64,000 bases of DNA from Pseudomonadota bacterium (GCA_043809085.1 JAZDEG010000030.1:21378-85377), one strand, 5' to 3'. Positions 6,130-44,844 are shown, counted from the stretch's first letter. The notes: a model not told the origin generated them from the letters alone. Program-made: numbers and translations.

Positions 6130-9100
6130 TTAGGCGATTTTTTCTATACGGATCGCACATACCTTGGCCTCGGGGATCTTACACACCGGATCAAGTGCGT
6201 CATTGGTCAACAGGTTTGCCGCCGCTTCCTTATAGTGAAAAGGAATAAAGACGATACCTGGCTCAACCCGGTCTGTGATTCTTGCCGGCAGAGAAATTGA
6301 TCCACGTCGCGAACGAGCCCTGACTTCTTCACCGTCTTTAATTTCCAGTTGTGCGGCTGTATCCGGATGTATCTCGACATAGGGAGAAGGAGCCGAAAGT
6401 TCAAGAATCTGGGACCGTCTGGTCATAGTGCCGGTGTGATACTGATAGAGAACTCTTCCGGTAGTGAGCACCAACGGATACTCGGAGTCGGCTACCTCCT
6501 TTGGTCCTTTCCAGGCGATCTCAGTAAATTTTGCCCTGCCGATGGGAAAGGTATCGACAAACAGTACGGGGGTTCCGGGGTGGTCTTCACTGGGACACGG
6601 CCACTGCAAACCACCTTCTGCATCAAGACGCCTGTGAGACATACCGGCCATATGGGGCCAACTGCGGCAGATCTCGCTGAAAACTTCTTCAGGAAAAGGA
6701 GCAAACGCGCGATACTTGCCTCCACCGTTCAGGTTGAATTGTCTGCCCGGCCTGCTCATCATGCTCTGAACTGTTCCCACCATCCGGGCGGTAACCATGT
6801 GGATAATGGAAAGATCATCCATGGCATGACCTGGTGGGCAGACAGCGCGCCGCACCCGCTGGACCCGTCTTTCGGTGTTGGTAAAAGTTCCGTCTTTTTC
6901 AGCAAAACATGCGGCCGGCAACACGACATCGGCAAGTTCGGCGGTACAGGTCATGAAGATATCCTGTACCACCAGAAAATCAAGTTTTTCCAGTGCTTTG
7001 GTAGCATGTCCGCTGTTCGGATCACTGAGAACGGGGTTCTCTCCCATTATCCACATGCCGGAAATTTTTCCATCCAAAATGGCGGGGATCATTTCCGTTG
7101 CCGTTAAACCCGGATTTTCAGGAACAGGGGTTCCCCAAATTTCTTCAAAATGTTTCCGGGCATTCTCATCGGCGACCGGTCGGTAACCGGGCAAATTCGA
7201 AGGAACGCAACCCATATCGCTTGATCCCTGCACATTGTTTTGGCCGCGCAAGGGATTAAGACCCGCACCGTGTTTGCCGAGATTCCCGGTAAGCAGAGCC
7301 AGATTGGCAAGGGTTCGGACGTTGTCCGTTCCGGATGTGTGCTGGGTTATGCCCATGGTATAGTAAATACCGGCTCGTTCCGCCTTGGCATAAATCCGTG
7401 CCGCTTCTTCAATATCGGCAGATGGGACACCGGTTATTTTTTCAGCCCATTCGGGAGTGCAGTGACTGACGGAATCTCTCATCTTTTCAAAATGTTCCGT
7501 CCGCTCTTCAATATATTTTTTATCATGAAGGTCATCCCGGATAATAACATGACACATTGCATTAATAAGGGCAGCATCACTGCCAGGGCGTTGCCGCAGC
7601 CACACTCGAGCACTTTTGGTCAGCTCAATCTGACGAGGGTCGGCAACAAGGAGTTTTGCCCCCTTTTTAACCGCATGCATCATGCGCACCGCGATGACCG
7701 GATGGGCTTCTGTTGTGTTGGAGCCGATAACCAGCAGCACCTCGTTGTCTTCAATGCCGGCGATCGTGTTGCTCATTGCCCCGGAACCAAGCGTTGTTGC
7801 AAGACCTGCAACCGTGGGAATGTGTCAGTAGCGGGCACAGTGATCGACATTGTTGGTGCCGATCACCGATCTGAAAAATTTCTGGAATGCATAATTTTCT
7901 TCGACCGTGCACCGGGCAGAGGAAAGACCCCCAAGGGAATCAGCCCCCTTCTCAGCCATTATTCGGGCAAATGAACCGGCGATAAAATCAAGGGCATCAT
8001 CCCATCTTGCCGGTTCCAGCGGTCCGCCTGGTCTTCTGCGGATCAGCGGTCTTTTAAGTCTGTCAGGGTGATGAATAAAATTATGGCCGAAACGCCCCTT
8101 AACACAGAGATCCCCATAATTCGGGCCGACTTCGGGATCAGCGGTGACCTCCATGATGGTCTGCCCCTTGACCCTGAGAATTATCTGGCATCCTGTTCCA
8201 CAGTATGGGCAGGTTGTCCTGACATCATGAACCTCTTCAGACTGAATAGGAACGATTCTGTGTTTTTTGTTCAGTGCTCCGGTGGAACAATTGTCCACGC
8301 ATTTTCCGCAGGAAACGCAGTTGTCCTTGAAGCGAATGACAAGTCCGTGCGGCCTGCCCTCTTCATCAACGGATTCGGCTTTCAATTCAAGGGCATCATA
8401 TTCGCAGACCCTCAGACAACGCTGACAGAAGATGCACTTGTTGGGATCAATATCAATGGCTTTATGAGTTGTGTCTATAGGATAAACCGGAATTGTCCCC
8501 ATACCGGTTTTATTGATATTAACATCATAGGCAATGTCGAGTTCCTTGAGGTTACATCTGTCAAATGCAGTGCAGCCGCAGGAGAGGCAACGTTCCGCTT
8601 CACGGCGCACCATTTTTTCGGTAAAGCCGAGTTTTATCTCATCAAAATCCTGTTTGCAGACTTCGGGCGGTCTTTGCGGCATCTTTTCGCGAAGCTTGAC
8701 ATTAATGCCTTCAAAGTTTTTCAGACTGACGTCATCAAAGCCCTTGCCACGGGTAAAATTGAATCGGCTTTCCGCAGCTTCCTTGTCAACACCCATGACA
8801 TAAGAGTGAATGTTTTCTGCGGCACGGCGACCTGTTACAACAGCTTGAATAACGGATTTAACACCGCTTACGGAGTCACCACCGGCAAAAACACCTTCAA
8901 TGTTAGTCTGTGAAGAACGAGGGTTGGCGACTATCATTCCCCTGTCCGACAGCTCAAGGGATGCTTCAAGTTCTCCTCCCGGCATGACACCATCAATGGC
9001 GAATTGCCCTATGGCGCTTATGACGGTATCAACCGGCAGTGCATTTTTGGATTCGGGAATCGGTACGGGTTCTCGTCTGCCGCGGCTGTCAGGTTCGCCA

Positions 9101-10353
9101 AGTTTCATCCTGATAAGATTAAGCATCAGCCGGGTATTTTCGTTGGAGCGGGAGCAGAGATCCACTGGTGACGCCATCAGCAAAAACTGAACGCCTTCAT
9201 GTTCCGCCTCGCGAATGTTACGCTGATTGGCCGGCATTTCTATCTGGGCGCGGGGATAGACAACGGTAACCTCATGCACGCCGAGTCGAAGAAGCGAACG
9301 GGCGACCTCCATAGCAATGTTGTTTCCGCCAATGACAGCAGCTCGGCGGCCCAGATCAAGCTTTCTTCCGTCGTTAACCATGCGCAGAAAACGGGTCGCC
9401 GTATAGACATGATCATAGTTGGCGCATGGAATATCAAGTGGTTGATCAACAGAAGCGCCGATGCCGATAAAAATTGCATCAAACCCTTGATCTTGAAGAT
9501 CCTGCAAGGAAAAATCTTTTCCCCACTGCTGACTGAGACGTATAGAGATCCCCATTTTCAGAATGGAGTTCACTTCATAATCAAGCACATCCTTGGGTAT
9601 TTTGTAATTGAGAAAACCATAGCGCAAAGCACCGCCTAGTTGAGGGGATGCCTCAAAAATAGTGACGTCATGCCCCTTCCGTGTCAGGAAATAGGCCGCG
9701 GTCAAACCGGAAGGGCCGCCACCGATAACCGCCACCCTTTTTCCGGTAGGTTTGTCCTTGGGAATATTGAGTTCAATCTCATGATTCATGCACCAATCGG
9801 CGACAAATCTTTTGAGATGGTTAATGGAAACAGGTTCATCGACCAAGAGACGGCGGCACCGCGTTTCACAAAACCTGGGACAGACACGTCCCACGGAAAA
9901 AGGAAGAGGATTGCGCTCCATTACCAGTCGAAGGGCCTCCTCATACTCTCCCCTGGCAATATGGGCAATATATCCCTGGACATTTATCTGACCGGGGCAG
10001 GTAAGATTGCACGGAGCCTTACAATCACCGAAATGGGTATTGGAAATGTCGGCAAGGCGTTGTTTTCGATGGGTAATTACCGGTTTGGAGTCGGTCTCAA
10101 TTTCCATCCCATCCTTGGCAAAGGTAATGCAGGCACGGAAAAGCCCTTCTGTTGAAAGTGTTGATTTAAGTCTATATTGACTGAAATCTTTTATTTCAAC
10201 AGCACATAAACCGCATGGATTCTCAGAAAGGGTGTTTTTTACGTAGCACAGGGTCGGGATATTAATATCCGAACGTCTGGCAACTTCAAGAATTGTCAAA
10301 CCAGCCTCGGCGACAATCTCCATGCCGTTCATTTTAAGGGTTATCGTCGACAT
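6130..10353 (-). CDS. fdhA: Formate dehydrogenase alpha subunit (Mo/W-bisPGD) fused to an N-terminal 2Fe-2S ferredoxin domain, a GltD/NfnB-like NAD(P)H-FAD oxidoreductase domain and 4Fe-4S domains. Selenoprotein, with Sec encoded by the TGA at 7825..7827.
   Basis: Track ORFs 7825..10353 and 6130..7776 are in the same frame. Read-through gives ...[33 protein letters not shown]..., compared with the E. coli FdhF motif CARVUHGPSVAGL. The N-terminus has a 2Fe-2S motif (PTLCY...NPCGLCAVE) and a GltD-like region (RVAVIGGGPSGLTAAYFL...VFAGGD). It also has CIFCQRCLRVC, CVSCGKCVDNC and TTCPYCGTGC. Total length is 1407 aa. Confidence 0.9.
7796..7812 (-). promoter_or_regulatory. SECIS hairpin for fdhA.
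   Basis: The minus strand reads UGA CAC AUU CCC ACG GUUGCA-GGUCU-UGCAAC. From memory of the E. coli fdhF SECIS (UGACACGGCCCAUCGGUUGCAGGUCUGCAC), the spacing and the GUUGCAGGUCU core are the same. Confidence 0.75.
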
Positions 10354-11875: not shown

Positions 11876-14080
11876 CTACATAACAGTTTCCATTTCAAGG
11901 GCAGGATGTCCTACCTTTTTGAGAAACGCCAGCACCTCTTCTTCGGTTGTGCCCACTTCCTCATCCGCAATCATGTCATACAGCCCGGGCATACCGAGCG
12001 CTTCACAACGTGCGATCAGTTTTTCTCTGAGCTCTTCCTTCAGCATTTTGGGCAGCCAGACAACCCGTTTTAATCCGCCTTCAGCCAAAAACAGCTTTGG
12101 ACTGGTAAGAAAATGCTTGCTGACACCCATGAATCCGGGTGTCTGGGCTCCACCTCCAGCCATACCGGCAAGAGAAGTAAATTTCATACCGCTCGGGGTC
12201 ATCCCCATATAATCGCGGTTAACAACCATGATGCCGTTACACTGAGGGAGCATTGCGGCAATGGCCTCGAAACAACCGCAGGCGGTCATGGGATTATTCA
12301 TCAGGGAGTAACAGCTTACCGCCGGTACCGCGCCGCGTGAAGCCTGGTTGACAAAATCATTGATGCCGATGAAATCACCTAGAACCGGATCCACACATTC
12401 CCCTTTCTGAATGGGCTGATTCGGACCGGTGGGGTTGATCTGGAATGAAGCTTTTCCGTCAAGCCAGTTATAGGCTCCGCACATGCCGACCCTTTCCGGG
12501 GTAATGACGCATACGTGGCTGGGGGCAAAAGACTGACATAGGGTGCATGAGTAGAAAACTTCCTCGGTTTCGTCGGTCATGTTGCCAAGGCGAAGATCCC
12601 TTTCGGCATAGACCTTTTTGGCGAGCTCCTGCACCTCTTCTACCTTATCCTGTTCCGTGTAAATCTTAACCTGGACCTTATCGAGAATAGCGCCGAATTC
12701 CTGGTGCAATTTGCCGTGAAGAACCTTGCCGATATGTTTGAAGGAAAATCCCTTTTCAACAGCAGCCTTGCCGATACGGATCCACATGATGTTCCGCTGA
12801 CCGATGTGCATGATGCCCTGGATATAGTTGATCAGATGATGGAACTGGCGTTCCAGGATCGGCTCAAAATCGGACTGCATCTCACGTCCGGCAACCTCGA
12901 CAAGGATGGCAATGGGCAGATTCTGTCCCTGGCTGATATCGGAAATATCCTTACCCACCAGGATAACTTCGCCATCGGTAACTTCGGACATATCCTTTGA
13001 GATAAGAACCTCGACGCCGCTTGTCCGTCCACCGCCGCATTCCATGAAGAGATCGTCTTTTCTGATTCTCTCCCCCTCAAAAGCAGGACCGAAGGCCATG
13101 GGAATATCGATTTTGGTAACATTGACTTTCAGGCCGCGCACCTCGATCGCCCTCTGTACGATTTCCTCGTGGGGAACATTGCTCACAACGTGTTCGTAAG
13201 TGCAGATACCGGTGGGAAGAACCTGAGGGATATCGTAATCGGAAATGGTCGGGAACCCCCAGTTGATTGCACCGGCGGCATTGGCATACCATTCATCACT
13301 GACCTGACCGAAGGCCATAACAAAAGCAAAAGTCCTGTCCTTGTTGTAAATGAGGTTGCCCCGGTAATCACCGGGTTTTATTCCACCAAAAGCCATGGCG
13401 ACACGGCAGGCGAATCCTATGGCAAAAACCGCGGTGGTATAGCTTTCTCCAAATGGAACCAGACGTGTGCCCCATCCAACCTGGACATTGTTTTTCACGA
13501 GTTGTTCCGCCATCCTGATGCCGTTGGAGTGGTCATGCATGAAGATGTAAAGATTTTTTTCCTGCAACTCGAGTGCGATTTTACTGGCGACCTCCTTGTC
13601 CTCGGGTGAGCCCATGATCGCAGCAAAACCTGGAGCGGTTCCATCAACGAACTCAACACCACGTTTTCTGAAAATAACGTCGTCCGCTGCGCCAAGCCAC
13701 AGGTTGGAACCTGCCGGATCCTCGGTTTTCGTGTAGAAATCAGGCTGTTCAAGATAGCGAATCGCCTCGAACATCTCCTCCGCAAAAAATGTTGCCATCC
13801 CTGCATCCAGGGCGGGGGCAAGATACGGAAGCCAGATATTATCGCTCACCAGTTCAGGCAGAAGTTTCCGGCATTCCTGGAAAATATCCTTCATATCTCC
13901 AAGTTTTTCCACCTTTGCTCCCAGCATACTGTATATAACCGGCAGAAAATATGCTGTATTGGGGAAAGAAACCGCCTGTTCAGGTCCATATTTCTTAATA
14001 GCCGCTTCAAATTTTTCCTCGGCCATATCTACAATTTTGTGGGCGCCTCGGATAGCAGCTGAACAGATTATTTTTGACAT
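11876..14080 (-). CDS. acsB: Acetyl-CoA synthase subunit of CODH/ACS (AcsB/CdhC).
   Basis: 734 aa. It carries the A-cluster region ...CTLCQSFAPSHVCVITPERVGMCGA...NPMTACGCFEAIAAMLPQCNGIM... and is collinear with Moorella AcsB as I remember it. Confidence 0.9.
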   Translation of the reverse strand: MSKIICSAAIRGAHKIVDMAEEKFEAAIKKYGPEQAVSFPNTAYFLPVIYSMLGAKVEKLGDMKDIFQECRKLLPELVSDNIWLPYLAPALDAGMATFFAEEMFEAIRYLEQPDFYTKTEDPAGSNLWLGAADDVIFRKRGVEFVDGTAPGFAAIMGSPEDKEVASKIALELQEKNLYIFMHDHSNGIRMAEQLVKNNVQVGWGTRLVPFGESYTTAVFAIGFACRVAMAFGGIKPGDYRGNLIYNKDRTFAFVMAFGQVSDEWYANAAGAINWGFPTISDYDIPQVLPTGICTYEHVVSNVPHEEIVQRAIEVRGLKVNVTKIDIPMAFGPAFEGERIRKDDLFMECGGGRTSGVEVLISKDMSEVTDGEVILVGKDISDISQGQNLPIAILVEVAGREMQSDFEPILERQFHHLINYIQGIMHIGQRNIMWIRIGKAAVEKGFSFKHIGKVLHGKLHQEFGAILDKVQVKIYTEQDKVEEVQELAKKVYAERDLRLGNMTDETEEVFYSCTLCQSFAPSHVCVITPERVGMCGAYNWLDGKASFQINPTGPNQPIQKGECVDPVLGDFIGINDFVNQASRGAVPAVSCYSLMNNPMTACGCFEAIAAMLPQCNGIMVVNRDYMGMTPSGMKFTSLAGMAGGGAQTPGFMGVSKHFLTSPKLFLAEGGLKRVVWLPKMLKEELREKLIARCEALGMPGLYDMIADEEVGTTEEEVLAFLKKVGHPALEMETVM

Positions 14081-14111: not shown

Positions 14112-16760
14112 TTATTTTCCGCTTGTAAGGCTGTTAATCAGAGACTTTGTGAGGTTAACGGCTTTCGGATGTCTCATAATCAGGACCTCACCACCAGAAA
14201 GCAGCATACAGGTAGCGGTTATAGCTTCCATCATGACACCTCGTGTTTCCATATTTCCTATCATGTCATCAGAGGGAAGCCGACATTCTTTCGCCTTCCA
14301 GACCTCCCGTCCGAGATTGCAGATAATCGGCACCTGCAGTTTTTCGTCCTGCTGGGTGAGAGCTGCCAAGCGGATGCGCTCCATGACTGAGTAGGTGTAC
14401 TCGATACCGTAACCAAGGGCGCCGACAGAAGGATCCATCATGACGGAACTAAGGGGTACACCGAGGTTCTGGAGGAGAATATTGAGCTGTTTGGCAAGAT
14501 TGACATCGATGGGGGAAGCTGCTACCAGTGGATTCTGGAATGCCATGGCCGTGGCACCCAGAGAACGATAATTGGCATCGCCCAACGGCGCCAGACAGAC
14601 TTTTTTGTCCCCGGTCAGGGATGTAATCTCGCGCAACGTTTCCGTGTCCTTTTCTGCATTACCGCAACCCCAAACAATAACCGGCACGTCAATGTTGTTG
14701 ATGACATCGGCCGCTGCCTTGGCCGCCTCGGCAGCATTTCTGTTCATACCATTGGGGTCGGTGCTCACAAGGGAAAGACAGATTGCCTCGGCATTGTATT
14801 CATTGATGCACTTTCTTGCCCAGGCAAGAGGGTTATCGAGAACACCCTGATAATGACGGGCAAGGGAATCAGGCCACTCATCCGGTTTGACATCAAGGAC
14901 ATCCAAGGCAATGACCGGCTTGTTGGGCATTGCACCTTCGAAAAGGTGAAACGGCAAAGAAGCTTCTCCGCCGATCTTAAGCGCTTTATCACCGCTTCCC
15001 AGCAGCACCTCTTTAATGGCGCCGGAATAATTTATTTTATAAGAATCCGCAGGGATCTTGGCAGCGCGCTCGACTAGAGTTGTTTTCTCAACCGCCAGCT
15101 CTTGAGCAGCGAGTTCCGCCGGAACAGCTACTGCGGCGGGTGCAGTTTTTGCTTCAGCAGCTTTCTTGGCCTCGTCGGCAGCCTTTGCCTCAGCGACCTT
15201 CTTGGCTTCTGCCTCGGCCTTTGCTTCAGCAGCTTTCTTGGCCTCGTCGGCAGCCTTTGCCTCAGCGACCTTCTTGGCTTCTGCCGCGACTTTTGCTTCA
15301 GCAGCTTTTTGGGCCTCGTCGGCAGCCTTTGCTTCAGCAGCTTTCTTGGCTTCTTCCGCAGCTTTCTCAGCAGCTGCTTTCTGCACAGTATCATCAACTT
15401 TTGCTTCAGTTGTTTTTTTGACCTCTGTAACAGCCGGGCGAGCGGGAGCAGCACCAGCATCCTGCGGCTGACGTTTCAGTACTGCTTCGGCGCTTGCGAA
15501 ACTTGACAGCGCCTCAAACTGATCGTCGGTCAAATTAAAGGCTTTCCTCAGGGCATTAAGGCCCATCTGCACAGATTGCAACGCCATTTGACGTTCTCTT
15601 TCGTTCATCTCATGCTCTCCTGCATCTTCATATTCTGTGGCAAAGCCGGCTGGAGCCGATACGGCCGCGGCAGCGCGCATTTTTTCAACCTCTTGTCGGG
15701 CCTGGGCGATAATTTTTTCAGCCTCAACCCTTGCTTCAGCAAGAAGCTTCTCATGATCAACCGCTTTTGCCGTTTCTGCGGGAGCGGTTACGATTTCTAT
15801 AGGAGTTTCGACCGGTATTTTTGCAACAGCTGCATCTTCTTCAAACACAGGTCTTGGTGCAAGTTTTGCCCGTTTGACTATCTCGGGAACAGCTTCCTCC
15901 CACTCGATAGCCATGATGTGCACTCCGGATACACCTTTTATTTCCTTGACCCGATTGATAATATCAACACAGATGTTGATACCCTCTTCCTGTTTGTCCT
16001 TGGCATCCTTCATCCGACTGAGGACTTCATCAGTCACATCCATACCGGGGACAAAATTTTTCATGTACTTGGCCATGCCAAGGGATTTGGGAGGGGTAAC
16101 ACCGGCGAGAATATACGCCTTTTCATGGATACCCAGATCACATACCATTTCCATGAAGCGAGAGAATTTATCCACATTGTAAATAATCTGGGTCTGAACA
16201 AAGTCAGCGCCGTTAGCTACTTTTTTGCCGAGACGTGGGGCTCTGAATTCAAAAGGATTGGCAAAAGGATTGGCGGCACAGCCAAGGAAAAGGCGAGGCT
16301 CGGCAGATTTAATTTCCTCACCGCACTGAAATTTCTTATCATCACGCATCGCTCGAACCATGCCGAGTAGCTGGATCGAATCCATGTCGAAAACACCTTT
16401 GGATCCGGGATGATTGCCGAATTTCTGATGATCACCGGTCAAACACAACAGATTTTTCAAGCCAAGAGCAGCGGCTCCCAGAATGTCACTCTGCATGCCG
16501 ATTCTGTTGCGGTCACGGCATGTCATCTGAATGACCGGTTCAACCCCTTCCTGAAGCGTGATAAGACCGGCCGCGATACTGGACATGCGGACAATTGCTG
16601 TCTGGCAGTCAGTAATATTGACGGCGTCAACATGACCTTTCAGTATCCGTGCCTTTTTCCTGACAATTTCAGGGTCGCTGCTTTTCGGCGGCCCCAGTTC
16701 CCCGGTTACGGCAAAGCCACCGGAGGTCAGAATTTTCTCTAAACGACTTCCCGATTTCAT
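14112..16760 (-). CDS. metF-acsD: Fusion protein of N-terminal methylenetetrahydrofolate reductase (MetF) and C-terminal corrinoid Fe-S protein small subunit (AcsD/CdhD), joined by a long Ala/Glu/Lys linker.
   Basis: Single 882-aa ORF with no internal stop. The N-terminal ~300 aa look like MetF (VTGELGPPKSSDPE...NITDCQTAIVRMSS...CLTGDHQKFGNHP). The C-terminal ~320 aa look like AcsD (LKIGGEASLPFHLFEG...VPVIVWGCGNAEKD...DPSVGALGYGIEYTYSVMERIRLAAL...LIMRHP). Confidence 0.85.
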   Translation of the reverse strand: MKSGSRLEKILTSGGFAVTGELGPPKSSDPEIVRKKARILKGHVDAVNITDCQTAIVRMSSIAAGLITLQEGVEPVIQMTCRDRNRIGMQSDILGAAALGLKNLLCLTGDHQKFGNHPGSKGVFDMDSIQLLGMVRAMRDDKKFQCGEEIKSAEPRLFLGCAANPFANPFEFRAPRLGKKVANGADFVQTQIIYNVDKFSRFMEMVCDLGIHEKAYILAGVTPPKSLGMAKYMKNFVPGMDVTDEVLSRMKDAKDKQEEGINICVDIINRVKEIKGVSGVHIMAIEWEEAVPEIVKRAKLAPRPVFEEDAAVAKIPVETPIEIVTAPAETAKAVDHEKLLAEARVEAEKIIAQARQEVEKMRAAAAVSAPAGFATEYEDAGEHEMNERERQMALQSVQMGLNALRKAFNLTDDQFEALSSFASAEAVLKRQPQDAGAAPARPAVTEVKKTTEAKVDDTVQKAAAEKAAEEAKKAAEAKAADEAQKAAEAKVAAEAKKVAEAKAADEAKKAAEAKAEAEAKKVAEAKAADEAKKAAEAKTAPAAVAVPAELAAQELAVEKTTLVERAAKIPADSYKINYSGAIKEVLLGSGDKALKIGGEASLPFHLFEGAMPNKPVIALDVLDVKPDEWPDSLARHYQGVLDNPLAWARKCINEYNAEAICLSLVSTDPNGMNRNAAEAAKAAADVINNIDVPVIVWGCGNAEKDTETLREITSLTGDKKVCLAPLGDANYRSLGATAMAFQNPLVAASPIDVNLAKQLNILLQNLGVPLSSVMMDPSVGALGYGIEYTYSVMERIRLAALTQQDEKLQVPIICNLGREVWKAKECRLPSDDMIGNMETRGVMMEAITATCMLLSGGEVLIMRHPKAVNLTKSLINSLTSGK
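15151..15366 (-). repeat. Three tandem 72-nt units (internal 36-nt sub-period) inside the metF-acsD linker. They encode AEAKKAAEAKAADE-type repeats.
   Basis: Units start at 15151, 15223 and 15295. The first 63 nt of units 1 and 2 are identical (gcttcagcagctttcttggcctcgtcggcagcctttgcctcagcgaccttcttggcttctgcc). Unit 3 is diverged. Confidence 0.9.
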
Positions 16761-18835: not shown

Positions 18836-19723
18836 TTATATCAGCCCTGCGGCCTGCTTGGCGGCCTGGACTGTATTTTTCATCAACATGGTAATGGTCA
18901 TGGGGCCGACGCCTCCGGGAACGGGGGTAATGGCGGCAGCCTTATCCTTCACGCCATCAAAGTCAACATCACCGGCAAGAATCGCTTTTCCTTCGGCGGT
19001 CATGCCGATACGATTGACTCCGACATCAATGATGACAACTCCATCCTTGACCATATCAGCTGTGACCATCTTCGGCACACCCACGGCAGCGATGATAATG
19101 TCGGCCCTTCGGCAGTGAGAAGCCATATCCTTGGTGCGGGTATGACAGATAGTGACGGTGGAATTGCCCCCTGCCCTTTTCTGCAGCATCAAATTTGTCA
19201 TAGGTTTGCCGACGATGTTGCTGCGGCCGATGACGACAACCTCGGCGCCGCTTGTTTCGATGCCGGATCGGGTCAGAAGTTCAAGAATGCCATGGGGGGT
19301 ACAGGGGAGAAAGCACTTTTCGCCCAGCACCATCTTGCCCACGTTAACCGGATGAAACCCATCCACATCCTTCTTTGGGTCTATTGCATAAAGCACTTTC
19401 CCCTCATCAATATGCTTTGGCAGGGGAAGCTGAACAAGGATGCCGTTTATCTTATCGTCGTTATTGTATTTATTGATCAGATTCAGTAATTCCTGTTCAC
19501 TGGTGTCGGCGGCGAGTGTTACCTGTTCGGAATGAATGCCGAGAGCATGTGCGGTTTTGTTTTTGGCGCTTACATAAGACTGGGATGCAGGGTCCTCACC
19601 GACAAGTATGGTCACCAATCCTGGAACCACGTTGTGTTTTTCCTTCAACTCAGCAACTTCGACTGTAAGTTCTTCGCGAATTGTTTTGGCGGTTTCGGTT
19701 CCGCTGATAATTTTTGCCGTCAT
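18836..19723 (-). CDS. folD: Bifunctional methylene-THF dehydrogenase / methenyl-THF cyclohydrolase.
   Basis: 295 aa. FolD hallmarks are present: PGLVTILVGEDPASQSYV, GILVQLPLP, VVVIGRSNIVGKP, TPVPGGVGPMT. Confidence 0.95.
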   Translation of the reverse strand: MTAKIISGTETAKTIREELTVEVAELKEKHNVVPGLVTILVGEDPASQSYVSAKNKTAHALGIHSEQVTLAADTSEQELLNLINKYNNDDKINGILVQLPLPKHIDEGKVLYAIDPKKDVDGFHPVNVGKMVLGEKCFLPCTPHGILELLTRSGIETSGAEVVVIGRSNIVGKPMTNLMLQKRAGGNSTVTICHTRTKDMASHCRRADIIIAAVGVPKMVTADMVKDGVVIIDVGVNRIGMTAEGKAILAGDVDFDGVKDKAAAITPVPGGVGPMTITMLMKNTVQAAKQAAGLI

Positions 19724-19838
19724 TATCGCTCCTTATGAATTTAAAACGTATATAAAAAAATGAATATGGAAACTGCGTTGAGGTTACTGCGGGCTGCCTG
19801 AAAAAAAAGCAAAAAAATATTGCAAAACTGAACGAAGT

Positions 19839-19867
19839 ATCATAGTTGACAAAATTTTGTTTTGCAA
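19839..19867 (-). promoter_or_regulatory. Sigma-70-type promoter candidate for the folD-acsA-metF::acsD-acsB-acsC unit, with an embedded palindrome.
   Basis: On the minus strand: TTGCAA (19867..19862), a 17-nt spacer, then TATGAT (19844..19839), about 115 nt upstream of the folD ATG. The spacer contains the perfect 12-bp palindrome ACAAAATTTTGT (19849..19860). Confidence 0.5.
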
Positions 19868-19948
19868 GGTATTTTGGACTTATTGAGGCAGATACTGCAT
19901 GAAAAAAGCTCAGATTACGGATACTTAGGTAGTAGTACCTAGTAACAA

Positions 19949-22162
19949 TTACCTGTTTCTGCCTTCAGCCAACTTGACGATAATATCGTTGGCCTGGCCG
20001 AGTCGAGTGACAAGGGTCTTGAAAAAGTGCTTTGCAACATTCGGATGCTTTTCGATGATCTCCATGATCTTGTCGCCGGGAAAACGCTTGATTGCCGATC
20101 TCCCCTTGGACAGGATTGATGCGGAACGGACGACTCCGGAGATGGCGGACATCTCGCCGAAATATTCATTTGGTTCGGTTATTTCGGCGATTTTCTTGCC
20201 GTCTTTAACCACCATGAGCGCCCCCTGAATAAGTTGAAAAAAATCTATGTCGCTGTTCCCCTGGCGAATGATGACATCCCCATCCTCATACCGTTCAATA
20301 TCAGGGTTAACCAGGTACGCAGGCAGGCTTTCCTCGGTAACGACAGTTTTTTTCATAACCTCATCAAGGCTGGTTACTCCTTGAATTGCCTTGCGGATAG
20401 CCGCATTGCGCAAAGGAATCATGCCTTCTTGAATGGCAACCTTGCGCAGTTGGTCTTCAGGCACCTCGGCGCTGATTGCCTTGGCTACCTCATCCGTAAT
20501 TTCCATCAGTTCAAAAAAACCGACCCTGCCCTTGTAACCACCGCCGCGGCAGACCGGACACCCTTTAGGACCCCAGAGGTTAGTGAGATTCGCCAACTGA
20601 TTTTCACTGAACCCGATACCGAGCAGCTCTTTTTCATCGGGCAAAGGAATCTCGACTTTGCATTCCGGGCACAGACGACGCCCCAGCCTCTGGGACTGAA
20701 CCATGGTAATGGCTGATGCCAGCATATAGGGCGGGATGCCGATATCAACCAGACGACCGATAGTTGCGGCGCAATCATTGGTGTGCAGGGTGGAAAAAAC
20801 CAGATGGCCGGTCATGGCCGCCTTGATGGCGATTTCGGCGGTTTCCATATCGCGGATCTCCCCCACCATGATGATGTCCGGATCCTGCCGGAGAAACGCC
20901 TTAAGGGCCGCGGCAAAGGTCATTCCAACTTCCTGGTGAACGTTGACCTGGTTAATTCCCTTGAAGTTAAACTCAACCGGATCTTCCGCTGTCAGGATTT
21001 TGGTGTCTTCATTGTTCAGCGAGTTCAAAGCGGAATAGAGAGTAACTGTTTTACCGCTACCGGTGGGGCCTGTTACCAGCAGGAGCCCCTGGGGGCGATT
21101 GAGACATCGTTTCAGGGTTTCGAAAACCTCAGGCTCAAAACCGAGTTTGGTCAGGTCGACATTAAGCGAACTTTTGTCCAGAATACGGAGAACGATGCTT
21201 TCGCCAAAAAGGGTGGGCAGGGTGGAAACGCGAAAATCAACCACCTTGTTGCGGCCGATACGCATCTTGATCCTGCCGTCCTGGGGAACGCGGCGTTCGG
21301 TAATATCAAGGTTTGAAAGAATCTTCACCCTGGAATTCAAGGCGTTTTTGATACTCAGGGGAAGATTCATGGATTTGTAAAGAGAGCCGTCAAGACGGTA
21401 ACGCACCTGAAGGGATTTCTCATACGGCTCGATATGGATATCGCTGACTCCGTCCTTGACTGCCTTGATCAGGATACCATTGACCAGTTTGATGATGGGA
21501 GCGTCCGAGGCGGAAAACTCCTCGGCAGTCCCTTCATCCTCTTCGATGGCCATTTCGTCGGCCGCTTCAGAAGCAAGTGACCCGAAGTCGTCGATACTTG
21601 CGACATCTTCTTCTTCCTCAATCTCCTCAGCTGCGCCAAGAAGCTCACGGTACTCTTCATCGGAAATCTTATAGTATTTTTTGTACGCCTCAAGAATATC
21701 CTTTTCCGTTGAAACACAGACAGAAAGAACCATTTTCACTTCTGTCTGCAACTCCTCAACCGCACTGGTATCGGTCGGCTCCGCCATGGTGATCTGCAGA
21801 GTCTTGCCGGTCATGCGCAAGGGCAGGGCACAATATTTTTTGACAATTTTGAAGGGAATGGTTTTAAAAACGTCAGGATTAGGCGGCTCTTTCTTGATAT
21901 CAACGGAGGGGAAATTATGGAGCCGACTCAGGACATTGAGAATAGTCGTATCTTCTATATGTCCGAGCTTGATCAGAATACTGCCCAGGCGCTGGCCGGT
22001 CTTCTTTTGAATGGCAAGCGCTTCATCAAGCTGACTACTGAGGATATGCCCCTCTTTGCGGAGCAATTCGCCAATCTTGACCTTGCCGGCACCGGACTGA
22101 TCTTTTATCGTCGTCCTGAGTGCGGATTTTTTATCGGGAATATTTTTTATTGGTAGCGCCAT
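19949..22162 (-). CDS. GspE/PilB/MshE-family secretion ATPase with an N-terminal MshEN-type domain and a C-terminal cyclic-nucleotide-binding domain.
   Basis: 737 aa. It has Walker A (VTGPTGSGKT), the Asp and His boxes (EDPVEF, GHLVFSTLHTND) and a tetracysteine motif (CPEC...CPVC). The C-terminal ~125 aa carry the cNMP signature (FGEMSAISGVVRSASI). The N-terminus carries two 24-residue MshEN-like motifs. Confidence 0.85.
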   Translation of the reverse strand: MALPIKNIPDKKSALRTTIKDQSGAGKVKIGELLRKEGHILSSQLDEALAIQKKTGQRLGSILIKLGHIEDTTILNVLSRLHNFPSVDIKKEPPNPDVFKTIPFKIVKKYCALPLRMTGKTLQITMAEPTDTSAVEELQTEVKMVLSVCVSTEKDILEAYKKYYKISDEEYRELLGAAEEIEEEEDVASIDDFGSLASEAADEMAIEEDEGTAEEFSASDAPIIKLVNGILIKAVKDGVSDIHIEPYEKSLQVRYRLDGSLYKSMNLPLSIKNALNSRVKILSNLDITERRVPQDGRIKMRIGRNKVVDFRVSTLPTLFGESIVLRILDKSSLNVDLTKLGFEPEVFETLKRCLNRPQGLLLVTGPTGSGKTVTLYSALNSLNNEDTKILTAEDPVEFNFKGINQVNVHQEVGMTFAAALKAFLRQDPDIIMVGEIRDMETAEIAIKAAMTGHLVFSTLHTNDCAATIGRLVDIGIPPYMLASAITMVQSQRLGRRLCPECKVEIPLPDEKELLGIGFSENQLANLTNLWGPKGCPVCRGGGYKGRVGFFELMEITDEVAKAISAEVPEDQLRKVAIQEGMIPLRNAAIRKAIQGVTSLDEVMKKTVVTEESLPAYLVNPDIERYEDGDVIIRQGNSDIDFFQLIQGALMVVKDGKKIAEITEPNEYFGEMSAISGVVRSASILSKGRSAIKRFPGDKIMEIIEKHPNVAKHFFKTLVTRLGQANDIIVKLAEGRNR

Positions 22163-22253: not shown

Positions 22254-22302
22254 AAAATAAAAAAAGGCGATATCGCAAAGAGCTTGGCTCCCCGGTATCG
22301 CC
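22254..22302 (-). terminator. Rho-independent terminator after fhs. It is flanked by T runs on both strands.
   Basis: ggcgata (22266..22272) pairs with tatcgcc (22296..22302), plus 2 more bp after a mismatch. On the minus strand it is followed by TTTTTTTATTTT (plus-strand A run 22254..22265). On the plus strand it is followed by T7 (22303..22309). Confidence 0.6.
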
Positions 22303-22329
22303 TTTTTTTGCATGATAAAATGGTCGTTT

Positions 22330-24093
22330 TTAGAAAACGCCTTTCACCTTTCCGGTTTCGACATCAACGTCAATACGACGATAGGCCGGGTCAGATGCAG
22401 TGCCCGGCATCAGGCTGATGGCGCCTGCAACCGGAACAACGAATCCCGCACCTTTATAGGTGAGGATATCTTGAATCGGCAGGGTCCAACCCTTGGGCAC
22501 ACCTTTCAGCTTGGGATCGTGGGACAGGGAGAGGTGGGTCTTGACCATACAGGTACCCATTTCCTTCATCTCCGGATCAGCAGCCATCCGTTTCAGTTTG
22601 GCCTGGGCATCGGCGCTGTAGCTGACTCCGTCCGCACCGTACACCTCTTTGGCAATAAGCTCGATACGTTTCTCCAGCGGGGTGTCCAGTTCGTAGAGGA
22701 ACTTGAAGTCATTTGGCTCTTCACAGGCATCGACAACCGCATCGGCGAATTCAAGAGCGCCGTCGCCGCCATGCTCCCAGTGGCGTGAAAGGGCAACCCG
22801 CGCGCCGGCAGATTCACAGAGCCTGCGGACCGCCTTGATCTCGTTGTCGGAATCAGTATAGAAGGCGTTGATACAGACCACCGGATTGATGCCCGCCTTC
22901 TTGACCGTTTCGATATGGTGCAGAAGGTTCTTGCATCCTTCTTCGACCCAGCCGACATTCTCTTTCTTGTACTCTTCCGGCATGGGCTTACCCGGCACCG
23001 GAATCGGGGCGCCGCCATGGCACTTGAGGGCACGGATTGTGGCAACGACAACGGCACAGTTCGGCTTCAGCCCGGAATAGCGGCACTTGAGGTTCCAGAA
23101 CTTCTCAAAGCCGATATCCGCGCCGAAACCGGATTCTGTAACATTGTAATCGGCAAGCTTTAGAGCTACACGATCAGCGATGACCGAAGACTGGCCGATG
23201 GCGATATTGGCGAAAGGACCGGCATGGACGATGACCGGCTGGCCTTCAATAGTCTGCAGCATATTGGGATTTAAGGCCTCAACCATCCAGGCGGTCATGG
23301 CGCCGGCCACATCGAGATCCGTGGTGGTGACGGGTCGATCCTGGCGGTCATAGGCCACGACGATCTTGCCGATCCGTTCGCGCATGTCCTTCAGGTCCCT
23401 GGCAACGGACAGAATGGCCATGATCTCGGAGCTGACGGCGATGGCGAATTTGGACTGCATGGTATAGCCGTCCATCTTGCCGCCAATGCCGATGGTGATA
23501 TTGCGCAGGGCCTGGGCGCAGAAGTCGATGATCCAGCCGAACTCAACTTTTTTCGGATGGATGTCGAGACGACGGAGATTTCGCATGGCCAGCTGCTCAT
23601 CCGTATAATTTGCCTCATGCTGCATGCGGGAAGTAAGAGCTACCATGCCGAGATTGTGGGCATTCATGATGGCGTTGATGTCGCCGGTAAGACCAAGGGA
23701 GAAGGGAGTCAAAGGGATACACTGAGCAAGACCTCCGCCTGCGGCGCTGCCTTTGATATTCATGGTGGGACCGCCGGAAGGCTGGCGAATTGCACCGATA
23801 ACACTTTTGTTTCTTTTGCCGAGTCCCTGCACCAGGCCCATGGCACAGGTGCTCTTCCCTTCACCGAGAGGAGTGGGGCTGATGGCCGTTACATCGACAT
23901 ATTTTCCGTCGGGACGATCTTTCAGGCGATCAAGGATTTTACGGTAATCAAGTTTGGCAACATAATGGCCGTGGGGCAAGAGCTCTTCCTTTTCCAGGCC
24001 GAGCTTTTCAGCAAGCTCATAAACAGTTTTCATGTTTTTTTCTGAATCTTCCGCAATTTCCCAATCTGCATGTTTGGTCGGGTCAAGAACCAT
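22330..24093 (-). CDS. fhs: Formate-tetrahydrofolate ligase.
   Basis: 587 aa. The sequence is collinear with Fhs ([33 protein letters not shown]). A strong RBS, AAAGAGGAGGAAG, precedes the ATG. Confidence 0.95.
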
Positions 24094-42891: not shown

Positions 42892-43749
42892 ATGGAAGCT
42901 GAAAAAAAATATATTCAAAATATCGACAAACTGATCCCCCGTCCCGATATTGCCCTGGATGTTCTGCAGATGGCCCATGATGAACAGGGGAACATCCAGG
43001 AAATGGCAAAAAAAATCGAGATAGACCCGAGCCTGACCGCCAACATGCTGCGGCTTGCCAACTCCGCGTATTTCGGCCACATGCGGGAAATCACGTCGGT
43101 GAAGGACATCATCATCCGCCTCGGGCTGGAAACCGTGAAAATCATAGCCATTACCGGGGCTTCCGTCGGTCTGATGAAATCACCGCAGCAGGCTTACAAC
43201 CTTGAAACGGGGTCTCTATGGCAGCACAGCCACGCCACCGCAGTCCTTTCCACCGTGATCGCCAAATATGCGGAAATTGAAGATTCCAGCAGTATTTATA
43301 CCGCGTCACTGCTCCATGATGTCGGCAAGGCAATTTTAAACAGGCCGCTGCAGATAGCCATCAGCAACAATAAAAATATGGGAAAAAAATTCCGCACATT
43401 GATTGAGCTTGAGATGTATCTGCTCGGTACCGATCACGCCAAGGTCGGCATGGCTCTGCTGCAGAAGTGGGGGCTTCCCGAGGAAATCTACCTGCCGGTT
43501 GGCTTTCATCATTTCCAGAAACATGCCAAGGAAGAACAACTGCTTCACGTGAAGATCGTCAGCCTCGCCAATTTTCTGGTGGAAAGCATCGGCATCCGTT
43601 CACTGATACCGGAAAACTTCAACTTTGATGTGCAGGAATTCATCGACCAGAATCAGGAATTGCCCGATGTGCCGAATTTCCAGGAAAACATGGAGAAAAT
43701 TATCAACAAATTCTTTTATCAGTACACCGAGACAACAAAATTGATTTGA
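42892..43749 (+). CDS. HDOD domain signalling protein.
   Basis: 285 aa. The HDOD pattern is present (MLRLANSAYFG...IIRLGLETV...LLHDVGKAIL...DHAKVGMALLQKWGLPEEI). Confidence 0.8.
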   Translation: MEAEKKYIQNIDKLIPRPDIALDVLQMAHDEQGNIQEMAKKIEIDPSLTANMLRLANSAYFGHMREITSVKDIIIRLGLETVKIIAITGASVGLMKSPQQAYNLETGSLWQHSHATAVLSTVIAKYAEIEDSSSIYTASLLHDVGKAILNRPLQIAISNNKNMGKKFRTLIELEMYLLGTDHAKVGMALLQKWGLPEEIYLPVGFHHFQKHAKEEQLLHVKIVSLANFLVESIGIRSLIPENFNFDVQEFIDQNQELPDVPNFQENMEKIINKFFYQYTETTKLI

Positions 43750-43782: not shown

Positions 43783-44844
43783 TCACTGAAGATCACGCTG
43801 ACGGAGCAATGTCACCCGGTTTCCTCCTTCCCGTTTTGCCAGATGCAGGGCTTTATCGGCCAGGGAGAAAAAATCTTCATAATTTTTGCTGTTATCATGG
43901 CTGTTTGCCGCGAGACCGATACTGATGGATACCTGACGGCTGATCTTGCCGTCATTAAAAACAAACTGACTCATCTGGGTATGAATATCCCTGGCGACTA
44001 TCTCCCCTTCCTGGCAGTCGGCATCCGGCAGCAGAACTCCGAATTCATCACCGCCTATCCGGCCGCAGATATCGGTACTTCGCACCTTTTCCACCAGTAT
44101 TTCGGAAACTTCACTCAACAGATAATCACCGAACTTTCTGCCGCAGGAATGGTTGATTTCCTTGAATTTATCGATGGCGATAAGCAGCAACACCAGCCCG
44201 CTGCCACGACGCTCAGCCAATCGGTATTCTCGTCCAAGCACCTCAATGAAGTGACGACGATTGATGAGTCCGGTAAGATCATCCTTGATCTCAAGCTCAC
44301 TGAGCTTGGTCAACATTTTTTTGCAGTCGGTGATATCCCGGCAGACGATAAGACATTGCCAGACAAAACCGAACTCATCCTTGATGGGATAGGCGGAAAT
44401 GGAATACCATCTTCCTCCCAGTCTCGGTTCGTTTCTTTCAAGATGAAAAGATTTCCCTGAATGAAAAACCTTACAGGCCGGGCAGTGGGATGCAGGATTA
44501 TCCTGTCCGTGAAACAGATGAAAACATTTTTTCCCGGAAAGATCTTCTTCGTAACCAAGGATCTCGCTGGTGGCCTTGTTGGCCCTGACAATATTGAATT
44601 CCCGGTCCACGATGTACAAAAGATCATCAAGGACATTAAACGTTTCCTGCCAGAGCCGGTGGGGATCAAGATATCTCCCCAGGCTTTTCGACGTATTTAC
44701 GCCATTTCCAGAGGATTCAAGTTCCTCTATCTTCCTGCGCAGTCTGGCCACATCCTCGGCCAACTCCTCGCGCGATTTATTACAATATTTCATGACAGCT
44801 TGTCCCCTTCCTGCAAAGCTGTTAAGAATAAAATAAAAGAACAA
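43783..44844 (-). CDS. PAS-GGDEF diguanylate cyclase.
   Basis: 353-aa ORF. It has a PAS-like N-terminal half and a GGDEF domain with an intact motif (RIGGDEFGVLLPD) and an RxxD-like I-site region. The true start may be the internal MKYCNK. Confidence 0.85.
   Translation of the reverse strand: MFFYFILNSFAGRGQAVMKYCNKSREELAEDVARLRRKIEELESSGNGVNTSKSLGRYLDPHRLWQETFNVLDDLLYIVDREFNIVRANKATSEILGYEEDLSGKKCFHLFHGQDNPASHCPACKVFHSGKSFHLERNEPRLGGRWYSISAYPIKDEFGFVWQCLIVCRDITDCKKMLTKLSELEIKDDLTGLINRRHFIEVLGREYRLAERRGSGLVLLLIAIDKFKEINHSCGRKFGDYLLSEVSEILVEKVRSTDICGRIGGDEFGVLLPDADCQEGEIVARDIHTQMSQFVFNDGKISRQVSISIGLAANSHDNSKNYEDFFSLADKALHLAKREGGNRVTLLRQRDLQ

Follow-up and report, generated by a model that had tools for sequence, protein, structure and literature searches.

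A cyclic-nucleotide-binding domain fused to the likely type IVa pilus motor PilB across the Desulfobulbia

The 64,000-nucleotide stretch of Pseudomonadota DNA analysed here (GCA_043809085.1, JAZDEG010000030.1:21378-85377; hereafter the window) raises the question of what a motor ATPase related to those of pili and secretion systems, with apparent nucleotide-binding domains at both of its ends, is doing between the genes of a Wood-Ljungdahl (WL) cluster. The gene in question, pilB below, is an ATG-start open reading frame (ORF) on the minus strand at 19949..22162, with its stop codon at 19949-19951, and encodes a protein of 737 amino acids; all features within it are given on the same strand. 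An initial annotation, made from the sequence, had described the product as an orphan MshE/PilB-family ATPase with tandem motifs for c-di-GMP, the cyclic dimer of GMP, at the N-terminus and a domain for cyclic mononucleotides (cNMP) at the C-terminus, and had suggested that it could integrate two different second messengers. We consider it probable that the protein comes from a Desulfobulbia bacterium and serves there as PilB, the ATPase that extends type IVa pili, carrying a C-terminal cyclic-nucleotide-binding (CNB) domain that is found throughout this lineage of sulfur-cycling bacteria.

The identity of the motor was examined with profile models, alignments and a structural model. Among the NCBIfam profiles, the 737-residue protein passes TIGR02538, the equivalog model for PilB as assembly ATPase of type IVa pili (residues 29-607 score 760 bits, the cut-off being 675.65), whereas the GspE equivalog fails its own cut-off (572 against 630). 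The T2SSE ATPase core, composed of N2D and CTD (residues 218-603, 20354..21511; PF00437, 449 bits), is intact, as had been claimed: Walker A (GPTGSGKT, residues 365-372, 21047..21070, by motif match), the Asp box (ILTAEDPVE, residues 389-397), Walker B (DPDIIMVGEIRD, read off the sequence), the His box (TGHLVFSTLHT, residues 451-461) and the cysteines of a tetracysteine zinc site, which extends from CPEC at 498-501 to CPVC at 535-538 (20549..20671, by motif match), are all there. In an alignment of 65 sequences, C498, C501, C535 and C538 are invariant, together with key Arg, Glu and Gly residues. An AlphaFold2 model built from the same alignment has a mean predicted local distance difference test score (pLDDT) of 86, with most of the core above 90, and Foldseek places this core on Geobacter metallireducens PilB (5TSG) with a TM-score of 0.98 and a root-mean-square deviation of 1.2 Å at 53% identity. 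On the N-terminal side of the core lie the MshEN_N c-di-GMP module (residues 29-81, 21920..22078), the MshEN C-terminal subdomain with the GSPII fold (residues 83-168, 21659..21916; PF05157, 51 bits against a cut-off of 23; pLDDT about 87-92) and an acidic disordered linker (residues 169-217, 21512..21658). In this linker pLDDT drops below 50 at 177-189 and 206-216, and it is the least conserved segment of the protein, with a mean column identity of 0.60 in an alignment of 80 sequences that comprises 79 genome loci and the window protein.

The best solved relatives of the full protein are the PilB proteins of Myxococcus xanthus and Geobacter (E ~1e-159), and its closest named relative among the best 120 matches listed is that of 'Desulfobulbaceae bacterium DB1' (97% identity); public pipelines label related proteins plainly PilB. 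With PilB from G. metallireducens, G. sulfurreducens and M. xanthus (5TSG, 5TSH, 5ZFR, 3JC8) it shares the MshEN/GSPII domain, N2D and CTD, the tetracysteine zinc site and the Walker A, Walker B, Asp-box and His-box motifs, but the known proteins end at ~565-590 amino acids and the window protein runs ~130 residues further, into the CNB domain. The three-domain architecture proposed at the outset (MshEN, T2SSE, cNMP_binding) has thus held, since hidden Markov model (HMM) matches to all three domains lie above their cut-offs and the confident structural model confirms the PilB core; the positions first assigned to the two terminal domains were also right.

The CNB domain occupies residues ~611-737 (about 19952..20330) and consists of a beta-barrel, a phosphate-binding cassette and the alphaB and alphaC helices. 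PF00027 (cNMP_binding) matches residues 623-706 over profile positions 2-89 of 89, with 45.4 bits against a cut-off of 27.5 (E = 8e-12). The cassette, FGEMSAISGVVRSA (residues 668-681, 20120..20161), is of the PKG/PKA type, FGE-x8-RSA. In PKA, PKG and CAP, the Gly, Glu, Arg and Ala of this cassette contact the ribose-phosphate of the ligand, and in the 80 aligned sequences F668, G669, E670, M671, R679 and A681 are conserved at 100%, position 680 being Ser or Thr in 76 of them. Averaged over columns, identity in this alignment reaches 0.81 in the CNB domain, not far from the 0.87 of the ATPase core and higher than the 0.71 of the MshEN motif region. The AlphaFold2 model has strands across residues 621-694 (not counted singly), a helix at 670-675 and two final helices at 696-705 (alphaB) and 707-736 (alphaC), with pLDDT of 85-95 in the barrel and of 72-80 in the last helices. 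Ahead of the domain, residues ~610-620 form a tether modelled with low confidence, suggesting that the attachment of the domain to the motor is probably flexible. When the CNB domain alone was used as a query, the nearest solved relatives were the cNMP-binding domains of apicomplexan PKG (E = 8e-19) and of PKA RI. The PilB tail has the beta-barrel, the FGE-x8-R[S/T]A cassette and the alphaB/alphaC helices in common with the CNB domains of these kinases (Plasmodium PKG CNB-D, 4RZ7/5DYK; PKA RI-alpha), but it sits on a secretion-family ATPase and not on a kinase, a channel, a guanine nucleotide exchange factor or a helix-turn-helix output.

The distribution of the fusion was followed in proteins and in genomes. 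All of the best 120 matches among 5.8 billion proteins (73-100% identity) carry MshEN, T2SSE and cNMP_binding, and the named sources among them are Desulfobulbaceae, Desulfurivibrionaceae, Desulfobia, Thiovibrio and relatives. Scanning a single genome of each species gave 80 Desulfobulbia loci, and the fusion is present in all 80 of the species-level genomes fetched, as near-full-length matches reaching the last CNB residues; Desulfurivibrio, Desulfopila, Desulfofustis, Desulfocapsa, Desulforhopalus, Desulfobulbus sp. Tol-SR and Hydrosulfovibrio are among them. The T2SSE-cNMP junction is also found in a fragment from the cable bacterium Ca. Electrothrix. When 1.84 billion cluster representatives were searched exhaustively, ~17,000 family members scored E <= 1e-30, and only 5 of the best 150 matches reached the CNB region. 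Given these 5 of 150 representatives, as opposed to all 80 Desulfobulbia loci, the CNB fusion is rare overall yet fixed within Desulfobulbia. A homologue search with the CNB domain alone retrieved only fragments of the same PilB family and no free-standing CNB relatives.

Sensor domains were also found on other motors of the T2SSE family. The protein P0149 (L082 10001..11938) combines the GspE N1E domain with T2SSE and cNMP_binding and is encoded inside a complete gspC-D-E-F-G-H-I-J-K-L-M operon, so that it differs from the window protein in its N-terminus and in having a full type II secretion system (T2SS) operon around it. The CNB domains of the two proteins are 41% identical and have in common the junction motif LPAYL.NPD, the FYQLI.G strand and the cassette, as would be expected if the two ATPase-CNB junctions share an origin. 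The presence of the fusion on a motor with its secretion system complete lends independent support to a regulatory role of the CNB domain in working filament ATPases. In P0193, a PilB-like protein with MshEN and T2SSE, a response-regulator receiver domain stands at the C-terminus where the CNB domain would be, suggesting that the C-terminus of T2SSE motors is a recurrent site of sensor fusions. A PilZ-domain gene lies close to the T2SS operon of P0149. A distant orphan PilB-CNB protein with 47% identity, P0126 (L081 10001..12004), carries a cassette degraded to FFCE...HTA, and its N-terminus holds the MshEN C-terminal subdomain only, the c-di-GMP motif module being absent; its gene adjoins clpB, and the ATP sulfurylase and Hdr/FlpD-like genes around it resemble the setting of a sulfate reducer. 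Representatives of ~1000 amino acids (P0124, P0125, P0128, P0130, P0136 and others) had been suspected of being longer sensor fusions; their domains turned out to be two complete T2SSE domains in tandem, an unrelated arrangement, to which P0124 adds an N-terminal T2SSF (PilC/GspF-like) domain.

At the other end of the window protein, motif I (residues 29-52) and motif II (residues 58-81) of the c-di-GMP module are separated by exactly 5 residues (KKTGQ), and the 53-residue NCBIfam model NF053729 ('c-di-GMP_motif') matches residues 29-80 with 54.8 bits against a cut-off of 38. Residues 29-81 align with residues 8-61 of Vibrio cholerae MshE (5HTL), Q61 of MshE corresponding to L81. Scored against the published patterns (strict and relaxed, with 11 constrained positions per motif; PMC5013675), motif I agrees at 7 of 11 positions under the strict and 9 of 11 under the relaxed definition, and motif II at 8 and 9 of 11, so that the 'few deviations' from the consensus noted initially were a fair description. 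In a separate scoring across the family of 14 key positions under the relaxed definition, the window protein satisfies 13, with Q52 kept and L81 as the sole failure. Two motifs of 24 residues with a 5-residue spacer are likewise present in MshE and in GSPII-B of Thermus PilF (8PKZ/8PQU), from both of which the window module differs by Leu in place of the final Gln of motif II and by His at two hydrophobic positions after the central Gly. The Lys at position 1 of motif I is common to the window protein and to Thermus GSPII-B, and it is compatible with nanomolar binding, because GSPII-B binds c-di-GMP with a Kd of 6 nM in spite of it; in GSPII-A of the same protein, a degenerate second motif abolishes binding (PMC11731258).

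Conservation of this module is uneven among two subclades that also differ in the genes that follow pilB (see below). In the subclade of the window, with WL genes downstream (n=31), motif I is kept and motif II mostly has Ser for the Gly of RLG (23/31) and a hydrophobic residue for the terminal Gln; every member of the other, with glycosyltransferase genes downstream (n=36), carries three non-conservative changes, L49K, Q52L/V/M and G67E/D. Binding of c-di-GMP is thus probable for the window protein, to judge from its motifs, and doubtful for part of the family. The degradation of the motif in part of the family makes cNMP look like the conserved input and c-di-GMP like the weaker half. The idea of a motor answering to two messengers, put forward in the initial annotation, is in this light a reasonable hypothesis for the window protein that loses strength on its c-di-GMP side when the family as a whole is considered.

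These features suggest a mechanism. The PilB hexamer would use ATP to drive pilin polymerisation via the PilC platform, and cAMP, or possibly cGMP, would bind to the cassette and reposition the alphaB/alphaC (hinge/lid) helices. This movement could alter the dynamics of the hexamer, the contact with the ATPase ring or docking at the pilus base, and so gate pilus extension post-translationally; if PKA, Epac and HCN are a guide, ligand binding would most likely release the ATPase ring from an autoinhibitory contact. The N-terminal MshEN domain would probably still bind c-di-GMP in the window protein and provide a second input, weakened or lost in part of the family. We advance only tentatively, with doubt slightly outweighing confidence, the full proposal that the pilus motor of the Desulfobulbia, including cable bacteria and Desulfurivibrio, is a cNMP receptor, in the window subclade also a c-di-GMP receptor, and that extension is gated by both messengers at the motor itself.

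Regulation of PilB is so far known to involve c-di-GMP (through MshEN or through FimX/PilZ partners), inhibitor peptides of phage or host, and transcription (cAMP-Vfr). The Pil-Chp/CyaB/Vfr pathway of Pseudomonas aeruginosa is similar to the one proposed here in that a cyclic mononucleotide regulates type IV pilus function, but there cAMP works on transcription through Vfr, whereas in the window protein the sensor is part of the motor, implying direct post-translational control. A 2024 review of PilB control has cAMP acting via Vfr on transcription and mentions no cNMP sensor on the motor (PMC11656802), and our full-text literature searches found no paper on a CNB domain fused to PilB, GspE or T2SSE. 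A strictly conserved CNB domain on the apparently sole PilB of a whole class suggests a direct regulatory route that has gone unstudied. If the proposal is true, PilB would be the first type IV filament ATPase shown to be under direct cNMP control, and the CNB domain on GspE would extend such control to type II secretion. Attachment, gliding or twitching would be affected, and possibly also pilus-dependent export linked to extracellular electron transfer; in cable bacteria PilA is reported as the most abundant protein, with an unresolved role (PMC10580974). The existence of cultivable Desulfurivibrio makes the hypothesis of a cNMP-controlled motor testable.

Does a pilB gene standing alone belong to a pilus? 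Geobacter pilB, unlike the lone gene of the window, adjoins pilT and pilC. Neither a T2SSE paralogue nor GspF/PilC, a GspG-like pilin or a secretin is encoded in the 64-kb window, in agreement with the initial annotation, and at 81 related loci no second T2SSE ATPase, GspF/PilC, GspG-like pilin or secretin turned up within 10 kb. Cultured Desulfurivibrio alkaliphilus has its type IVa pilus genes spread over seven loci (PMC12545173, supplementary tables; 2025 Nature paper). The sole pilB listed there, DA_837 (WP_013163063.1; 996035-998263, 2229 nt), encodes 742 amino acids, a length that fits the fusion and not the usual ~570; its expression, at 124-195 reads per kilobase per million (RPKM), shows no significant change over all five growth conditions. 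The other pil genes are pilC (DA_872), pilT (DA_1080), pilD (DA_2361), pilQ (DA_2418), pilY1-X-V-W-fimT-pilA (DA_2309-2314) and pilPONM (DA_2341-2344; all PMC12545173). Cable bacteria, too, are stated to encode a type IVa system, with pilA in a cluster of its own (PMC10580974). Given the seven-locus layout in D. alkaliphilus and the lack of pilus genes near pilB in the 81 loci, the orphan position is therefore the normal arrangement in this lineage. The word 'orphan' remains apt for the surroundings of the gene and does not imply a role outside pili. Indeed, one of the findings named beforehand as undoing the initial interpretation, cognate pilus genes elsewhere and an ordinary PilB role, comes close to what this near relative presents, while both terminal domains are supported by HMM matches.

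The position of pilB between fhs (22330..24093, on its upstream side) and folD (18836..19723, downstream), which had been called unexplained, is accounted for by gene order in relatives. In the window the cluster runs, on the minus strand, in the order selenocysteine formate dehydrogenase fusion, acsC, acsB, MetF-AcsD fusion, cooS, folD, pilB, fhs, thyX, nifS, nifU, uvrC, and across the 80 loci the conserved block is nifU-nifS-thyX-(fhs)-pilB. In the ~31 loci nearest to the window it continues as nifU-nifS-thyX-fhs-pilB-folD-cooS-...-acsB-acsC, with folD after pilB in ~31, and the order fhs-pilB-folD recurs in ~24 related loci. The synteny that had been proposed for checking is therefore real in this part of the family, but 36 of the 80 loci have glycosyltransferases downstream instead, in the order nifU-nifS-thyX-(fhs, at times inverted or absent)-pilB-Elm1-like-double GT4-(glgB)-(algH), with no WL genes downstream. 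The Elm1-like gene (PF06258) and the double GT4 follow pilB in L035-L080, for example at 12360..15634 in L074 and 12310..15572 in L054. In this configuration the next gene lies on the same strand at a median gap of ~120 nt and a terminator-like hairpin is present in 0/36 loci, so pilB and the glycosyltransferases may form an operon in the 36-locus subclade. An insertion of the WL genes between pilB and the glycosyltransferases was also considered; it is not shown, as neither the window nor the WL-context loci contain the Elm1-like and GT4 genes.

Transcription signals were sought on both sides of the gene. Just upstream of pilB, fhs is followed by an intrinsic terminator (22254..22309, minus strand), a hairpin with a U-run and a folding energy of -26.9 kcal/mol (z = -3.58 against shuffles), whose long stem was missed by a consensus terminator scan and found by folding. 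In the relatives, a hairpin was counted as terminator-like if it reached at least -12 kcal/mol in strength and had a T-run after it, and 29 of the 35 loci with fhs directly before pilB have one, most of them at -16 to -32 kcal/mol; the stems differ in sequence among loci, function being conserved and sequence not. A terminator at this place predicts that pilB is insulated from fhs and starts its own transcript. On the other side, the 225-nt spacer between pilB and folD (19724..19948, minus strand) contains a weak hairpin with U6 and a promoter-like TTGCAA-17-TATGAT (19867..19839). Scanned in full against Rfam at gathering thresholds, the window showed no riboswitch or other RNA family, and therefore no regulatory RNA explains the gaps around pilB. 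The two alternative downstream contexts, together with the conserved fhs terminator, lead us to conclude that the WL embedding of pilB is most likely incidental, a matter of conserved gene order with no functional tie to the pathway. A false lead is thereby removed: the position of the gene is no sign of a link between pili and autotrophy.

Several observations weigh against the picture of a pilus motor gated by two nucleotides. In the N-terminal module, neither motif I nor motif II fully matches the published pattern, strict or relaxed, and no family member has all 14 key positions (14/14); the final Gln of motif II, which in MshE hydrogen-bonds the ribose and phosphate of c-di-GMP, is Leu here (L81) and hydrophobic in most of the window subclade. 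The cognate pilC, pilT, pilMNOP, pilQ and pilA are most likely encoded elsewhere in the source genome, by extension from its relatives. There is no clear promoter or Shine-Dalgarno sequence upstream of the pilB start codon (a consensus scan returned no convincing sigma-70 promoter), and the hairpin between pilB and folD is weak and not significant (z = -1.56), so that read-through into folD is possible. In the CNB domain, specificity for cAMP or cGMP is not readable from the sequence, residue 680 being mostly Ser in the window subclade and mostly Thr in the other (RSA in 27/31 WL-context members, RTA in 32/36 glycosyltransferase-context members); this split may reflect a difference in ligand preference. 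One could go further and suppose that the domain binds no cyclic mononucleotide at all, and serves another small molecule or acts as a protein-protein or oligomerisation module, as several CNB domains of the CRP/FNR family do. Bacterial CNB folds do take other ligands (CooA binds haem, NtcA 2-oxoglutarate), the distant fusion P0126 has a degraded cassette, and no cyclase gene was seen for cNMP among the genes of the 64-kb window; we nevertheless hold this to be unlikely, as the Gly, Glu, Arg and Ala of the cassette are invariant across the 80 aligned sequences and the nearest solved relatives, PKG and PKA, are genuine cNMP-binding domains.

The remaining alternatives concern the output of the motor. 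It could act mainly as a signalling ATPase for polysaccharide synthesis or glycosylation, and not in pilus extension, the precedent being PilB of M. xanthus, which reportedly regulates exopolysaccharide production. The short gaps and absent terminators between pilB and the Elm1-like and GT4 genes in 36 loci are compatible with co-transcription, but these genes are missing from the window and from ~31 WL-context loci; furthermore, the protein passes the PilB equivalog model, DA_837 is the only pilB of D. alkaliphilus beside a full type IVa pilus gene set, and in M. xanthus one role does not shut out the other, all of which make this proposal a little less likely even than a CNB domain without a cyclic nucleotide. 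A motor for type II secretion or for another type IV filament, such as the secretory pseudopilus proposed for Geobacter PilA-N/C, in place of a surface type IVa pilus appears improbable to us: the same CNB fusion does occur on GspE within the T2SS operon of P0149, and a part in secretion has been suggested for Geobacter pili in work cited in PMC10580974, but the protein falls below the GspE cut-off and above that of PilB, and its N-terminus is MshEN and not the N1E domain of GspE. Least probable of all, and very remote in our estimate, is a functional tie of pilB to the WL pathway, through co-regulation for autotrophic growth, for example, or the assembly or secretion of a factor related to the pathway. 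The gene does share its strand with the whole cluster, flanked by fhs and folD, and the fhs-pilB-folD order of ~24 related loci and the succession of pilB and folD in ~31 would fit; but nifU-nifS-thyX-pilB exists without downstream WL genes in 36/80 related genomes, a strong terminator separates fhs from pilB in the window and a similar hairpin does so in 29/35 loci, the gap to folD is long (225 nt in the window, a median of ~360 nt in relatives), and pilB expression in D. alkaliphilus does not change over five growth conditions. A type IVa PilB with a CNB tail remains our preferred reading of the window protein.

Other genes of the window are recorded here for completeness. An HDOD gene (42892..43749, plus strand) and a PAS-GGDEF diguanylate cyclase gene (43783..44844, minus strand) are convergent and, although present as first annotated, lie ~20 kb from pilB, with nothing linking either to it. 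Within the WL cluster, the MetF-AcsD fusion (14112..16760, minus strand; 882 amino acids) consists of a MetF-like methylenetetrahydrofolate reductase (residues 6-298) and, beyond a long Ala/Glu/Lys-rich repeat linker (AAEAKKVAEAKAADEAKKAAEAK...), a CdhD/AcsD domain (residues 584-830). The formate dehydrogenase gene (6130..10353, minus strand) is split by an in-frame TGA at 7825-7827 into ORFs at 7825..10353 and 6130..7776; this TGA, in the motif CARY-[TGA]-HIPTVAG, marks the position at which catalytic subunits of formate dehydrogenase carry selenocysteine, and in the N-terminal part of the product Fer2_4, GltD-like Pyr_redox_2 and Fer4 modules are fused to the molybdopterin domain.

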